Source of the DNA: a phage
Direction: 5' to 3' (one strand)
DNA length: 43,583 nucleotides
Assembly (NCBI GenBank): GCA_012646105.1
Contig: GCA_012646105.1_4328.1
Position numbers and translations under genes: made by a program. Positions 3,988 through 39,863 of this stretch are shown here, in pieces. Numbering within the stretch: position 1 is the first letter of the stretch; every line of letters begins with the position of its first letter. The notes beneath the pieces are model-generated. The model was not told the origin of the DNA. It was given only the letters and a program-made list of their open reading frames with translations, and made no database searches.

Positions 3988-4499
3988 GTAGACAAAACAC
4001 CACGTAACAATGGGATTACTGAAGGGGTCATTAACTCGCCAGTGGCTCTTTGGTTCAACATAGGAACGCCCACATCAGCCGTGAATACCCCTTTTTCCTG
4101 ATTGATTGTCTGTAGCTCATAAACCACCGGCCCGTCCGCCGGGTAGGTTAAGTCTGTGCTGACGAAACGGCGGAATATAAACTTAGGCAACACCGTATTG
4201 TCTGGCGGGATGCGGTCCATCTCATCGTCTAACTGGTTACCGATGTCAGGTAGCGCAAACGACGCCCTCTGGTCCATATCGTTATTGTTCGCAGCCCCTT
4301 TAGCCTCCATAGGCGTAGCCTCAAACGTAACGACTTCGCCCGTCTCTAACGTTGCCGTCAGGTCGGAAGTTCCGCGCACAAGTAAATACCGCTTCGAAAG
4401 AAGCGGGTGAACTATCTCTAATGTAGTGTAATCAATCTCACCGTCTGGGTTTGAGGCCAGCTTACGGCGGTAGGCTGCTTCTACAGATTCCTGGCTCAT
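3984..4499 (-). CDS. minor tail protein (171 aa)
   Basis: six-frame ORF in tail-tip module downstream of tape measure. Confidence 0.5.
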   Translation of the reverse strand: MSQESVEAAYRRKLASNPDGEIDYTTLEIVHPLLSKRYLLVRGTSDLTATLETGEVVTFEATPMEAKGAANNNDMDQRASFALPDIGNQLDDEMDRIPPDNTVLPKFIFRRFVSTDLTYPADGPVVYELQTINQEKGVFTADVGVPMLNQRATGELMTPSVIPLLRGVLST

Positions 4500-17905: not shown

Positions 17906-18180
17906 GCTAGTCCTTATCATTTAAACACAGAAACGGCGTAATCTCAGTAAATCAGTTACTTTTTACACAAGCAATAGAGTATGGCCCTTCCGGACGCGTC
18001 AGCGTAACTACACTCAGGACTTACGTCCAGCTCCGTTACCTGCCCGCGACGCGGTCGCTTGTTCATACTTCACAAGCTCAGGTGGAGCTTAGCATATTTT
18101 TAGTGAAAAGTCAACTATTCGAATAGTTTATTCCAACATTTACAATTGAGTGGAATAACTGGAATGCGTAAACAAATAGT

Positions 18181-18209
18181 TTGCATACTCCAATATAATA
18201 GGGTACTAT
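18181..18209 (+). promoter_or_regulatory. promoter TTGCAT-N17-TACTAT with embedded operator-like palindrome
   Basis: -35 at 18181-18186, -10 at 18204-18209, RBS AGGAG at 18224-18228, ATG 18237. Confidence 0.5.
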
Positions 18210-18236
18210 TCAGTTAACTTAAACAGGAGATGAGAA

Positions 18237-21854: not shown

Positions 21855-23105
21855 TTAAAGTGCGAAAGTCACCGGGATGTTGATTACTGGTTTAACCACC
21901 GGCATCTCGTAAACTACAGGATAGCCGAGCGCATCTGCCATATGGTCGATGATGCCATCTTTAGCTGGCTCTCCGTTATCGTCGTAAGCCTGCTGCTCCA
22001 GCGTCTTCGCTATCTCGGGGCATAAGTGGTCGTTAACCCACAGCTTACCTTTTTCCAGCGCGGTATTCACGGCTAAAACACGGTCTTTAACCGGGGGGTT
22101 GGCGGATTTAGCGCGAACATCGAAACCGGCCTGCTGGAGTAATGCAATATCTGAGATTGACGCCGAGTTGGTCTTGCGGTTCTTGCCGCTGGCGTCGGGG
22201 TAAACGACGATGCGGTGGCCCTGCGACTTCCACTTCTCAGTAATTACGCGCACGGTGTCTGGCGTGTCAAACAAGCCTTTCAGTTCTGCCACCGCGTGCC
22301 AGCCATCCTTACGCTGCACATACACGGCGCTGGCGTTCTTTGTAACGTTGAAGTCCTGCCCGATGTACAGCGTGTCGCCTGGTTGAATTGTCTCTTTGCT
22401 GCGGTGCTTACGGCGATCGTAGGCGTAATACACGCTGCCGGAGGTAAGGTTGACGAACTCACCATTCAGATACGCGTTAATCAACTGCGCAGGGTAAGTC
22501 TCGGTCAGTGAGCTAATGTAGTCAGGCGGCAGGAATCGCGCGTTCTCGTGTGTAGAAGCCTGAACCATTGAGTAACTCGGCGTCGGGTTCTCTTTGAACT
22601 TGGCGTATACGAACTTGAACCCTTCCGGCGTCGTGGTGACGGAGATGTGGTTAATTACCCCCGGAATAACAAGACGCATACGGGCTACGATTTTGTTCCA
22701 CGCCATCTCGGCTTTCTCGCGGCTCAGTACATCGAGCTCATCCACGACAGCAGCCGCGATTTTGAAGCCGACTATCGAGCCGGGGTTATCCATCGAACGG
22801 CAGATAACGGTCCCGAGCACCGTCTTACCGCGGGTAACCACGACTTCTTTGTCGCCGGATTTAACCAGCACATCAAGGCCAAGCAGGTTAGCCGCTTCCT
22901 CGAATGTTGGGTAGAAGATGTCACGGATAGCCGGGTATGTCGGGCCGAAGTAGCCCAGGCGCGTACCGGGGTGTTTGAGCATGAACGTAAGCAGGTCGAG
23001 GCAACCAACAAATGTCTTGCCGCTTCCGAAGCCGCCGACATAGGCTTTGTATTTGTTATCGCAATTCAGGAACAGAGCCTGTGGTGCGGATAGCTGAATA
23101 CTCAT
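21855..23105 (-). CDS. terminase large subunit (416 aa)
   Basis: Walker A-like GGFGSGKT near N-terminus, acidic nuclease-type C-terminal half, position. Confidence 0.85.
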   Translation of the reverse strand: MSIQLSAPQALFLNCDNKYKAYVGGFGSGKTFVGCLDLLTFMLKHPGTRLGYFGPTYPAIRDIFYPTFEEAANLLGLDVLVKSGDKEVVVTRGKTVLGTVICRSMDNPGSIVGFKIAAAVVDELDVLSREKAEMAWNKIVARMRLVIPGVINHISVTTTPEGFKFVYAKFKENPTPSYSMVQASTHENARFLPPDYISSLTETYPAQLINAYLNGEFVNLTSGSVYYAYDRRKHRSKETIQPGDTLYIGQDFNVTKNASAVYVQRKDGWHAVAELKGLFDTPDTVRVITEKWKSQGHRIVVYPDASGKNRKTNSASISDIALLQQAGFDVRAKSANPPVKDRVLAVNTALEKGKLWVNDHLCPEIAKTLEQQAYDDNGEPAKDGIIDHMADALGYPVVYEMPVVKPVINIPVTFAL

Positions 23106-23686
23106 TCCTCTACCTCGCCCATATTAGTTGTTACGATTTTACCTACAGGCTCTGCGACACTGAAAACAATCTCCGTCGGTGCTGTTTCTTCGGTGGGTTC
23201 AACCGGTTTCTCTTTGCTAAGGCCCAGCTTCGCGGCGGCAAACGTAGCGGAGATGCCAGCGGCCCCGGTCTCAGTGAAATAGGCCTCTTCCAGCGCCTGT
23301 GCTGTTTCATATGCTTCTGCAAATGCAGGAATCTCGCGCAGCCACAGCTTAATAATCGGGATAGTGACGCCGATGTGTAAGGCGAAGCGGGCCAGTGACG
23401 GTGGTTTATCCTGAATCAGCGGGCGTTCGTCACCCTTGGACGTAGGCACAAGTTCCCACGACGTGCGGTCGAAGAACTCGATTAACGCGTCGCAATAGTC
23501 CGGGTCCCACAACGCGGCGGAATTACGGGATGATTGATAAAGGCTCTGTTTACTGCGCGGTCGTTCACGGCGACGGTTTGCGCTAACAGCTTCTTCATGT
23601 GCAGCTTGCACCACCTCTGGCGATGGCTGCTTAAGTTTCAGCTTCATAGAATCCCCTTGCATATGCGTCTGACCATCAGAGCGCAC
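23102..23686 (-). CDS. terminase small subunit (position-based; GTG start)
   Basis: 194 aa ORF overlapping large subunit start (ATGA), basic N-terminal region. Confidence 0.5.
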   Translation of the reverse strand: MRSDGQTHMQGDSMKLKLKQPSPEVVQAAHEEAVSANRRRERPRSKQSLYQSSRNSAALWDPDYCDALIEFFDRTSWELVPTSKGDERPLIQDKPPSLARFALHIGVTIPIIKLWLREIPAFAEAYETAQALEEAYFTETGAAGISATFAAAKLGLSKEKPVEPTEETAPTEIVFSVAEPVGKIVTTNMGEVEE

Positions 23687-23713
23687 CAGACGCGCCCTAC
23701 GCGTCTAAAGGGA

Positions 23714-23742
23714 TTATATAAGTGGATTGGGCGGGATGTACA
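23714..23742 (-). promoter_or_regulatory. candidate late-operon promoter TGTACA-N17-TATAAT
   Basis: perfect -10 TATAAT on minus strand downstream of terminator 23745-23766 and upstream of terminase small gene. Confidence 0.35.
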
Positions 23743-23744
23743 GA

Positions 23745-23766
23745 AAAGCCCTCCGTAGAGGGCTTT
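23745..23766. terminator. bidirectional terminator separating early-left operon from late operon
   Basis: AAAGCCCTC-CGTA-GAGGGCTTT 9 bp stem with flanking A and T runs. Confidence 0.6.
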
Positions 23767-23866
23767 TCTCAGTTATATAGGCCGTGTCGTGGTGCTCTTT
23801 TACCATCGCCGCCGTAATGGTCGTTAGCTGCGGGAATGGCCCATGCGTTCGGGATGATTAGTAGTC

Positions 23867-24046
23867 TCATTTTAAGAATCTCAACAGGGCATCAGCGATA
23901 CCAGACATAACTAGCCCAAAAAACATAGGCCACCAGATATACCGTGGCAGATTGGTGAATGTTTCTGGCTTAGCCCAAAAAGCCATTAAAAACGCGAACC
24001 AAAACACCAAATAACTAATGTTGCTAAGTAATTCTAAAATATTCAT
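23867..24046 (-). CDS. small membrane protein (59 aa, 2 predicted TM)
   Basis: hand translated (MNILELLSNISYLVFWFAFLMAFW...); ATGA overlap with stop of 24043..24279. Confidence 0.4.
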   Translation of the reverse strand: MNILELLSNISYLVFWFAFLMAFWAKPETFTNLPRYIWWPMFFGLVMSGIADALLRFLK

Positions 24047-24279
24047 TCCCCACTCTCCTCTTTAGCAATACGTTGCTCTGTTTTAGTGATACCACGGCGT
24101 GTGAATAACACCGGGCTGGTCTTAACGTGCGTCATTAGACGGTTGTTATAAATTACATGGCGCTCGCATTTCACGTCTTTGCTGTACTTCGCAATCGTCA
24201 TTTCGTTGAGGCCAGTTTGCCGGCACGTCTCCGCCATCGTGCCGAATTCTTTAATCAGGTTCGGAATGCTGGTAATCAT
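24043..24279 (-). CDS. hypothetical early protein (78 aa, possible HTH)
   Basis: six-frame ORF, coupled overlaps. Confidence 0.5.
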   Translation of the reverse strand: MITSIPNLIKEFGTMAETCRQTGLNEMTIAKYSKDVKCERHVIYNNRLMTHVKTSPVLFTRRGITKTEQRIAKEESGE

Positions 24280-28805: not shown

Positions 28806-28836
28806 CTTCTGTCTCTCCTCTCGTTTGTGTAAATGA

Positions 28837-28865
28837 ATAGTAGCCTATTCTATCTTAGTGTGCAA
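28837..28865 (-). promoter_or_regulatory. promoter TTGCAC-N17-TACTAT (minus strand) overlapping GAATAG-N4-CTATTC palindrome
   Basis: -35 at 28865-28860, -10 at 28842-28837. Confidence 0.5.
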
Positions 28866-29810: not shown

Positions 29811-29835
29811 TCCTCTGTCTCGTTTCGATAAGTGA

Positions 29836-29864
29836 ATAGTAACCTATTATGTTGGGGTGTGCAA
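29836..29864 (-). promoter_or_regulatory. promoter TTGCAC-N17-TACTAT (minus strand) with embedded operator palindrome
   Basis: spacer ACCCCAACATAATAGG is almost identical to that of the 9137 promoter. Confidence 0.5.
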
Positions 29865-33252: not shown

Positions 33253-33325
33253 TTGATATGTGAATAGTACCATATTAATTATTTTAGAAAAGCCCATTGA
33301 CATGTGAATAGTTCGCTATTATAGT
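33253..33325. promoter_or_regulatory. divergent promoter/operator region with two operator palindromes
   Basis: TTGATA-N17-TAATTA and TTGACA-N17-TATAGT, each spacer containing TGTGAATAGT; leftward -10 TACTAT at 33269-33264. Confidence 0.5.
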
Positions 33326-36125: not shown

Positions 36126-36154
36126 TTGACACCTGAATAGTTAGCTATTATATT
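36126..36154 (+). promoter_or_regulatory. promoter TTGACA-N17-TATATT with TGAATAG-N4-CTATTAT operator in spacer
   Basis: consensus -35, upstream of 36208 gene. Confidence 0.5.
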
Positions 36155-39578: not shown

Positions 39579-39863
39579 ATGACCCCGGAAGGAAAGATTC
39601 AGAAATACGCAAAAGAGCAATTCGAGGCCATTGGCGGCCTCGTTCGTAAGATGGCATTTGAAGGTCGGCGGGCCGCCATGGACCTCCTGGTAATTCTCCC
39701 CGGCGGCATCGTCTGGTTCGTCGAGGTTAAGAAAGACGAAAACACGAAGCCAGACCCGCACCAACTACGGGAACATGAGAGATTTCGAAAACGTGGCGCT
39801 AATGTTTTTGTCGTTGGTTCGTTTAAACAGGTTGACGACCTAATAGCGAACTATTATAGTTAG
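39579..39863 (+). CDS. VRR-NUC domain nuclease (94 aa)
   Basis: DLLVILPGGIVWFVEVK PD-(D/E)xK-type core. Confidence 0.6.
   Translation: MTPEGKIQKYAKEQFEAIGGLVRKMAFEGRRAAMDLLVILPGGIVWFVEVKKDENTKPDPHQLREHERFRKRGANVFVVGSFKQVDDLIANYYS

Follow-up and report, generated by a model that had tools for sequence, protein, structure and literature searches.

The perfect inverted repeat beside the terminase small subunit gene, terS, is read here, with moderate confidence, as the first hairpin of a conserved and structured 5' leader RNA of the packaging and head mRNA, which would cap the 5' end of that message and is probably contacted by a factor. The structure and the distribution of this leader are solid, and its function we infer. 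The window, the whole 43,583-bp stretch of DNA that was analyzed, is a K1G-like Kagunavirus genome (Guernseyvirinae), and the genes around the palindrome lie on its minus strand. Matches to this region include Escherichia phage K1G and many records of Kagunavirus and Jerseyvirus, and 384 GenBank records matched the region carrying the terS leader. Read along the minus strand, the order of elements is terminator, promoter, hairpin 1, hairpin 2, Shine-Dalgarno sequence and the terS ATG at 23647 (Table 1). The probable start of the packaging-operon mRNA is identified, and a compact RNA element of about 44 nt is defined, with two hairpins and near-invariant GG loops, which is better conserved than the neighboring genes. 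Few candidates for phage therapy and biocontrol of E. coli and Salmonella are isolated as often as Guernseyvirinae and Dhillonvirus phages.

Table 1. Features of the terS region in the window, with the positions of the window
Feature	Position	Strand	Sequence or basis
terL	21855-23105	minus	Pfam Terminase_6N/6C
terS, terminase small subunit, 181 aa (predicted)	23102-23647	minus	PHROG 3064 'terminase'; ATG 23647
Shine-Dalgarno sequence of terS	23652-23658	minus	AAGGGGA; sequence; free in the centroid fold
Hairpin 2	23663-23686	minus	GUGCG-C-UCUGA-UGG-UCAGA-CGCAU; outer stem, 1-nt bulge, inner stem, UGG triloop
Start-like GTG (ATG in many relatives)	23684-23686	minus	In frame; paired at the foot of hairpin 2
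Hairpin 1 (palindrome)	23688-23706	minus	AGACGCG-UAGGG-CGCGUCU; folds as 8 bp with an AGG triloop
-10 element	23713-23718	minus	TATAAT; sequence and promoter scan
-35 element	23737-23742	minus	TGTACA; promoter scan; overlaps the end of the terminator U tract
Intrinsic terminator, end of the ninH-like small-gene unit	23742-23768	minus	GCCCUC-UACG-GAGGGC, then UUUUCU

Promoter, terminator and hairpins upstream of terS

As the initial annotation had described, the plus strand at 23688-23706 reads AGACGCGCCCTACGCGTCT, a perfect inverted repeat with 7-bp arms and a 5-nt spacer. A 7-bp palindrome is not significant by itself. The window contains 46 perfect inverted repeats with a stem of at least 7 bp and a loop of 3-8 nt, compared with 17 ± 4 expected from first-order Markov simulations; 26 of them have GC-rich stems, where 5 were expected, and most of the excess consists of terminators. 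This palindrome is considered non-random because it is conserved with covariation, lies at a fixed 6-9 nt after an invariant -10 element and occurs once per genome. A search of the window for a second copy of the element, using both a sequence pattern and a covariance model, gave chance-level matches only; the element is present in one copy per genome.

The promoter scan placed TGTACA and TATAAT, separated by an 18-nt spacer and with 10 of 12 matches, directly upstream of hairpin 1. A minus-strand TATAAT adjoining the palindrome had been listed at 23719-23714; the hexamer is present and conserved, and its position needed a correction of one base, to 23718-23713. TATAAT is invariant in seven lineages, and most Jerseyvirus phages have TACAAT. 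The -35 TGTACA is kept in Kagunavirus and Jerseyvirus, other Guernseyvirinae have TTGCCT at 17 nt, and in Dhillonvirus the -35 is replaced by an extended -10 (TGTTATAAT). A conserved TATAAT with a -35-like hexamer 16-18 nt upstream points to a sigma-70-type promoter. Relatives differ freely in the promoter spacer and in the 6-9 nt that separate the -10 from hairpin 1, and the latter stretch, CCCUUU in the window, changes in both sequence and length (CCCTTT, CCATTT, CCTTAAT, CACCTGA, CCACCTT and others). The seventh base after the -10 is the canonical sigma-70 start position. In the window this base is the A at 23706, the first base of hairpin 1, and transcription is predicted to start there on the basis of promoter geometry. 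The distance from the -10 to hairpin 1 is 6-9 nt in every lineage, so a transcript counted from the predicted +1 would have 0-2 unpaired nucleotides at its 5' end. The searchable literature holds no transcript maps for these phages.

Upstream of the promoter, the small genes 5' of terS, which include a NinH-like ORF, end at an intrinsic terminator (Table 1) with a GC-rich stem-loop, a U tract and compensatory stem changes among relatives (GCCCTC/GAGGGC, GCCCGC/GCGGGC, GCACTC/GAGTGC and GCCCACC/GGTGGGC). The annotation of phage Snoke marks a terminator at the homologous site. The window site was missing from the consensus terminator scan, probably because the T run is consumed by an A/T extension of the stem. 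Farther downstream, terminator-like hairpins lie on the same strand as terS at 20350-20335 and 18784-18762, and promoters of the AATAGT family are found on the minus strand at about 18212 and 9168. Therefore, the unit served by the terS promoter probably covers about 5 kb, from terS to the head-morphogenesis genes, and not all 22 kb of the structural block. The other strong promoters of the window form a separate family, with the palindrome TGAATAGT-N3-CTATTATA over the spacer and the -10, of which there are 10 copies versus 0.25 expected. The same motif has been reported as 'phage promoters' in Kagunavirus fBC-Eco01 (PMC9825357). The terS promoter does not carry the AATAGT-family motif and the promoters of that family do not carry a +1 hairpin, so the packaging unit looks to be under separate control.

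Folding of the window leader with RNAfold gave exactly hairpins 1 and 2, with a single unpaired G between them and with the Shine-Dalgarno sequence and AUG outside both. Hairpin 2 is followed by AUGC, the Shine-Dalgarno sequence, UUCU and the AUG. Three Gs of the Shine-Dalgarno sequence pair weakly with the downstream coding sequence in the 77-nt minimum-free-energy fold, and the sequence is free in the centroid fold and in the 65-nt fold. The window leader has a folding energy between -23 and -24 kcal/mol, for which z is modest (-1.3 to -2.0); over the leaders tested, the energy was only modestly better than that of shuffled sequences (z of -0.3 to -2.4). Hairpin 2, the upstream terminator and the start of hairpin 1 at the predicted transcription start were absent from the initial annotation.

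Several other kinds of element were considered for the two hairpins. Neither appeared in the terminator scan and neither has a U run directly 3' of it, as would be seen for an intrinsic terminator or attenuator; the bases after hairpin 1 are GGUG or GAUG, and those after hairpin 2 are AUAUGCAA or AUUUAAGA. A switch by alternative pairing between the 3' arm of hairpin 1 (GCGUCUG) and CAGACGC of hairpin 2 would be perfect in Kagunavirus and is broken in Jerseyvirus (CAUACGC), and it was rejected because the compensatory change at CAUACGC supports hairpin 2. A CsrA site was rejected since the loops have no GGA, and a sigma-70-dependent pause element was rejected since TATGAT at +27 in Jerseyvirus is TCTGAT in Kagunavirus and is, thus, not conserved. 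A permissive E-value scan of 23400-24000 against Rfam 15 returned only chance-level matches, the best with 22 bits compared with a gathering score of 47. Three of the matches near the element lie outside it, and the fourth, SpF51_sRNA (14.8 bits, E = 7.7, plus strand 23721-23768), overlaps the terminator and the -35.

Start codon of terS

The palindrome had been described as lying in the terS leader, just upstream of a GTG start codon. The location was right, and GTG 23686 does open the longest terS ORF, with the homologous ATG or GTG annotated as the terS start in many GenBank records. On comparison of the lineages, however, the start of terS is ATG 23647. A good Shine-Dalgarno sequence is found 4-7 nt from the downstream ATG in every lineage, though the sequences differ (the equivalents in relatives are AGAGAGGA, ACAGGAGA, GAGGUGA and AAAAGGGC), and the PHROG 3064 profile aligns from residue 1 of the 181-aa form of TerS. 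Between Kagunavirus and Jerseyvirus, the codons after ATG 23647 differ by synonymous changes (AAG CUG AAA CUU AAG versus AAA CUC AAA UUA AAA). Across the 13 upstream 'codons', 5 of 7 or 8 changes are non-synonymous and track the RNA stems, and the rest fall at bulge position 26. Dhillonvirus and the CCCC variants of the phiEap-2-like phages have the upstream start in another frame, PSDA-2 and VLCpiS11a have a stop after it, and the Serratia phages lack it, which makes five lineages in which it is out of frame, stopped or missing. This start codon, which is widely mis-annotated, is corrected here. With the start at ATG 23647, the palindrome does not occupy the place where a ribosome-binding site would be expected, as had been suggested, since the true Shine-Dalgarno sequence, AAGGGGA at 23658-23652, is 40 nt further downstream.

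Covariation and distribution of the two-hairpin leader

About 150 related loci from GenBank, IMG/VR and metagenomes were reduced to 23 distinct leader variants, from which the covariance model was built. Among these variants, 97.2% of the pair cells are standard pairs, which was equaled in 0 of 500 shuffles, and slid controls of the pairing gave 13-57%. Pair 7-13 goes from G-C to U-G to C-G, and pair 28-38 alternates between C-G and A-U; a few tip variants break pairs 1-19, 25-40 and 27-39 with A:C. With the distant lineages included, both partners had changed in six pairs, a number that 4 of 500 shuffles also reached, and the covariation score was 0.28 versus 0.15, in an alignment that was fitted to the model, so that its pair counts are biased toward the structure, and that consists of phylogenetically related sequences, with the covariation signal coming largely from a few deep splits between related clades.

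Nine leaders were also folded independently, and these gave the same two-hairpin architecture with the Shine-Dalgarno sequence outside both hairpins. In these folds, a stem of 7-8 bp carries an AGG or UGG triloop in hairpin 1. The outer stem of hairpin 2 is separated by a bulge or internal loop from an inner stem of 5 bp, on which an A-U pair closes a UGG triloop. The minimum-free-energy folds of PSDA-2 and Cornellvirus keep hairpin 2 and distort hairpin 1. The stems are largely rewritten among lineages and the loops are constant. Versions of the hairpin 1 arm include AGACGCG, AGAUGGC, GUGGCCC and AAGGCCC, with the loop YNGGG in all lineages; the inner stem of hairpin 2 is found as UCUGA/UCAGA, UAUGA/UCAUA, GCCGA/UCGGC and GCGUA/UACGC, with the UGG loop kept apart from a single UGA variant.

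The type of non-Watson-Crick pair depends on the strand that is read. There are 31 G-U cells on the sense strand versus 8 A:C cells, nearly all of the latter being single tip variants or the result of misalignment of the phiEap-2 outer stem by the model. The G-U pairs are fixed throughout clades, with G5-U15 and U7-G13 found in Jerseyvirus, U4-G16 shared by phiEap-2, PSDA-2 and Dhillonvirus, and G3-U17 by PSDA-2, L015 and SE126. Pairing of hairpin 1 is 97.2% when read as sense and 85.5% when read as antisense. A packaging (pac) site or a DNA operator would be expected to conserve the duplex sequence with no preference for a strand, which is not what these leaders do. The sense-strand G-U bias and the swapping of stems, therefore, favor a folded sense-strand RNA over a duplex recognition site.

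The two-hairpin leader was found in Kagunavirus, Jerseyvirus, Cornellvirus, four unclassified lineages of Guernseyvirinae and Dhillonvirus. The order of the elements is the same in Kagunavirus, Jerseyvirus, Cornellvirus, the phiEap-2-like phages, PSDA-2/SenTO17, VLCpiS11a, Serratia Otaku/Tsm2 and Dhillonvirus. Upstream of terS, the covariance model matched PSDA-2/SenTO17 with 56-59 bits and Cornellvirus PhiSTP1 with 46 bits, and it matched Dhillonvirus, VLCpiS11a and Serratia Otaku/Tsm2 more weakly (18-20 bits, E of about 1e-3); all of the matches lie at the same position relative to the -10 and terS. A 24-base pattern of invariant positions matched only Kagunavirus and phiEap-2-like phages among metagenome contigs. 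Among genome contigs it matched one Jerseyvirus-like contig in a Taishania assembly and no bacterial or prophage homologues. With a 15-base pattern in IMG/VR, about half of the matches were due to chance. In Pectobacterium phage Amona, whose TerS is 29% identical, the leader is AT-rich and the element is absent, and by this sequence comparison Amona sets an outer limit on the distribution.

The identity of the element to the window is 84% in Jerseyvirus, 83% in phiEap-2, 78% in PSDA-2 and 71% in Dhillonvirus. In the distant lineages, the identity of the flanks (promoter region, 3' leader and the opening 90 nt of terS) is only 51-59%, about the level of alignment noise, and the upstream region and coding start reach 73-78% in the closely related Jerseyvirus. 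The element was above its flanks in four of five comparisons. The exception was VLCpiS11a, with 57% for the element versus 65% upstream, where the covariance model misaligns hairpin 2 and thereby lowers the identity. In phiEap-2, TerS is 31% identical, with the first 46 residues unalignable, and the N-terminus of TerL is 38% identical. By these comparisons the leader is the best-conserved stretch near terS. Conservation sets in abruptly at the first base of hairpin 1, a footprint that fits a functional unit which would begin at the 5' end of the transcript, and it shows selection on more than generic hairpin stability.

Candidate functions of the leader

Under the preferred reading, a capping leader with a factor contact, transcription from upstream would stop at the intrinsic terminator (23768-23742), and host sigma-70 RNA polymerase would restart at the terS promoter to give a transcript that opens with hairpin 1. 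Hairpin 2 would follow one unpaired base later, and the Shine-Dalgarno sequence and ATG 23647 would be left single-stranded. The resulting mRNA would carry the packaging and head operon, namely terS, terL, portal and the following genes. The 5'-terminal stem-loop would shield the triphosphate end and block 5'-end-dependent attack by RppH and RNase E, hairpin 2 would bury the spurious upstream start codon, and the near-invariant GG triloops (AGG or UGG in hairpin 1 and UGG in hairpin 2) would be touched by a trans-acting factor. Protection of the 5' end is the most likely role of the leader, by analogy with what is known of RNA decay.

The hairpins hp1 and hp2 of the ompA 5' UTR and the T7 gene 10 leader are 5'-terminal stem-loops that stabilize mRNA. 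The terS leader resembles them in that a hairpin lies 0-2 nt from the predicted 5' end, followed by a second hairpin and a single-stranded ribosome-binding site, and in that it heads a highly expressed structural or late mRNA. A stabilizer hairpin of this type is expected no more than about 2-4 nt from the 5' end. Known stabilizers act through structure alone, and their sequences drift. In the terS leader, by contrast, the loops and much of the stems are constant across genera. A plain stabilizer does not explain the leader on its own, because such a hairpin needs no conserved loop or stem sequence. Since the sequence conservation is far above what stability needs, we propose that a trans-acting factor probably contacts the GG triloops. 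If the leader were only a 5' stabilizer, it would be ordinary biology.

The initial annotation had also offered an RNA hairpin that controls translation. The hairpin part of this proposal agrees with the covariation and the sense-only G-U pairs. Control by simple occlusion of the ribosome-binding site is unlikely on the predicted folds, as the Shine-Dalgarno sequence (23658-23652 in the window) pairs with neither hairpin and, together with ATG 23647, lies outside both in every lineage. In some minimum-free-energy folds the Shine-Dalgarno region pairs weakly with downstream sequence, and the only start codon that is paired is the spurious GTG.

A more tentative possibility is that the leader belongs to an undescribed cis-regulatory RNA family of the packaging operon of Guernseyvirinae and Dhillonvirus, in which the GG triloops would be read by a trans factor that switches or times the packaging genes. 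The reader may be host RNA polymerase, in the manner of put RNA, a phage RNA-binding protein, or TerS acting as an autoregulator. A description of this leader RNA was not found in the searchable literature, and Rfam has no family for it. If a factor does read the loops, the element would open a new way into late gene control for many phages of a large group and could become a part for engineering their small, synthetic-biology-friendly genomes.

Another explanation, which we consider unlikely, is that the leader is a cis-acting RNA that controls elongation, with the two hairpins binding RNA polymerase directly (put-like) or recruiting a phage or host protein (as boxB recruits N in nut) for read-through of terminators in the packaging and head block. 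In the put-like case, suppression of downstream terminators would be factor-independent and would act through the beta' zinc-binding domain of RNA polymerase. The put RNA of HK022 (putL and putR) is a cis-acting antiterminator that measures about 70 nt and has a triplex and long, irregular stems (PMC9378689). The position and topology of the terS leader are like those of putL, with two stem-loops directly after a sigma-70 promoter, and both have high sequence conservation and plausible downstream terminators to pass, which here would be the two same-strand hairpins at 20350-20335 and 18784-18762. The element is present as a single copy at the head of its unit, and the retention of its loops and stems across lineages whose proteins are 30-40% identical would fit a conserved partner, such as host RNA polymerase. 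The terS leader is only about 44 nt, however, with short regular stems and no triplex or bulged architecture. In the early region of HK022, searched from 20000 to 40751, the covariance model found no match, its best score being 7.6 bits (E > 1), and Rfam has no put family for comparison. The internal AATAGT promoters at about 18212 and 9168 mean that long-range antitermination is not obviously required. Like lambda nut, it is a leader transcribed early that has a short hairpin with a 5-nt loop and, in Kagunavirus, CGCUCU nearby. In contrast to nut, the order is reversed, the boxA-like string is paired and not conserved, and the loop is YNGGG and not GNRA-like as in boxB. A lambda-type nut site, with a CGCUCUUUA-like single-stranded boxA 5' of boxB, was rejected because CGCUCU is confined to Kagunavirus, where it follows hairpin 1 on the 3' side and forms part of the paired stem of hairpin 2. 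A protein like N was not identified.

It is similarly improbable that the conserved block is a duplex-DNA packaging signal, that is, all or part of a pac site at which TerS would bind and start headful packaging. The pac sites of the headful phages SPP1 (pacL and pacR), P22 and P1 lie near terS. As in these phages, the element is a unique conserved sequence directly 5' of terS in a phage that packages by the headful mechanism; PhageTerm calls pac in Shashou, Snoke and Kenya-K47, in papers that give no position. There is one element per genome, and it always travels with this TerS family. On the other hand, what is conserved is a folded sense strand, with pairing preserved through G-U on that strand only, stems swapped wholesale and loops constant, and repeated TerS-box motifs are absent. 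Between lineages in which the element stays 83% identical, the identity of TerS, with its predicted helix-turn-helix segment counted in, is about 31%. The sense-specific wobbles and this divergence speak against a duplex-DNA site, be it the packaging recognition site or the late-activator binding site that the initial annotation had suggested as candidates. In Kagunavirus fBC-Eco01, PhageTerm found no defined termini.

The ends of GenBank and IMG records were also considered, since several open or close at or inside the element, at positions equivalent to 23687, 23698 or 23657 of the window. These were rejected as physical pac ends, as they follow annotation conventions, the opening base being that of terS as annotated or of the ribosome-binding site assigned to it. 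The BASEL genomes are linearized at the first base of the annotated terS, the Snoke and Shashou records open at an annotated 'RBS' that is the AGG loop of hairpin 1, and others open at scattered offsets. In the Kenyan Jerseyvirus records the first base lies 10 nt before the ATG, which their paper does not explain.

A DNA operator, with a dimeric phage or host regulator bound to the 19-bp palindrome centered at about +10 to block or time the terS promoter, is very doubtful. A hyphenated dyad over +1 is the classic position for a repressor, and, because the other promoters have a palindrome of their own (AATAGT-N-ACTATT) and the terS promoter is unlike them, separate control is suggested. The half-sites, however, are asymmetrically conserved in Jerseyvirus (AGACGCT versus AGACACC), the stems are wholly different in VLCpiS11a and in the Serratia and Dhillonvirus phages, and it is the loop that is invariant and not the arms. 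An operator would also leave hairpin 2 unexplained.

The last alternative, that the AGG(G) loop of hairpin 1 serves as the Shine-Dalgarno sequence of an N-terminally extended TerS or a short upstream ORF starting at the GTG or ATG at 23686, is highly improbable given the frame, substitution and PHROG evidence above, even though AGGG lies 8 nt upstream of this codon, the Snoke annotators marked the AGG as an RBS and 23 of 23 Kagunavirus, Jerseyvirus and phiEap-2 variants have ATG or GTG there, an A/G variation that is equally explained by pairing with U44.

AATAGT-family promoters and their palindrome

A conserved palindrome, TGAATAGT-N3-CTATTATA, spans the spacer and the -10 element in a family of sigma-70-like promoters, here called the AATAGT family. 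Ten copies were found in the window, compared with 0.25 expected. The palindrome is the same motif as the PHIRE motif published for Kagunavirus fBC-Eco01 (PMC9825357), and a phage regulator probably uses it as its operator. The promoter of terS, the terminase small subunit gene, does not have this palindrome.

Repeats, stem-loops and other features of the window
Feature	Coordinates	Strand	Remark
AATAGT-family palindrome	33305-33323	+
AATAGT-family palindrome	36134-36152	+
AATAGT-family palindrome	39840-39858	+
AATAGT-family palindrome	33261-33279	+
AATAGT-family palindrome	28834-28852	+
AATAGT-family palindrome	29833-29851	+
AATAGT-family palindrome	18104-18122	+	weaker copy
AATAGT-family palindrome	18212-18194	-	perfect promoter motif
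AATAGT-family palindrome	9168-9150	-
AATAGT-family palindrome	25784-25766	-
Stem-loop	20350-20335	-
Stem-loop	18784-18762	-
Stem-loop	17905-17886	-
Stem-loop	15514-15493	-
Stem-loop	10985-10966	-
Non-coding gap	17906-18218	-	~300 bp
Variable slot	23765-24050
Hydrophobic ORF, 59 aa	23867-24046		in variable slot; PHROG 10956

Non-coding elements of the structural region

Inside the structural region lies a non-coding gap, in which no ORF was evident. It contains a single perfect AATAGT-family promoter motif as well as a weaker second copy. Intergenic gaps of the structural gene block, among them one 3' of the portal gene and one at ~15.5 kb, contain strong stem-loops that are rich in GC and have a short U tract. 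These stem-loops may set structural protein stoichiometry, acting either as partial terminators or as 3' stabilisers.

Start and N-terminus of terS

The annotated terS start differs among the GenBank records of the Guernseyvirinae (for example, L002, L003, L008, and L010 versus L006, L007, and L009; Snoke, L219). Some annotations give a gene of 546/585 nt from an upstream ATG/GTG, whereas others give 507/546 nt from the ATG of MKLKLK. Comparison among relatives favours the shorter form. In phiEap-2-like contigs, the stretch that separates the Shine-Dalgarno from the terS ATG varies in length by 1 nt (CCC or CCCC), as seen when L113, L118, L093, L167, L168, and L193 are compared with L004, L153, and L177. 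The CCCC form has a 20-codon ORF that begins at an upstream ATG and overlaps the terS start.

Near its N-terminus, at residues ~24-33, the TerS protein (window 23102-23647) carries an arginine-rich stretch, NRRRERPRSKQ, and the Jerseyvirus counterpart is RRRKRPRGKQ. The N-terminal 46 residues could not be aligned with phiEap-2 TerS.

Loci around the terS leader

Just upstream of the intrinsic terminator that precedes the terS promoter, the window and homologous loci have a variable slot. BLAST matches are interrupted there, and its small ORFs, a hydrophobic one in the window, differ from relative to relative. A Jerseyvirus-type terS leader (the two-hairpin 5' RNA element) with its flanks was also found at 4458-4497 of NZ_JACVEL010000022.1 (L198), a scaffold of a Taishania pollutisoli (Bacteroidota) assembly, where it most likely represents phage contamination rather than a prophage.
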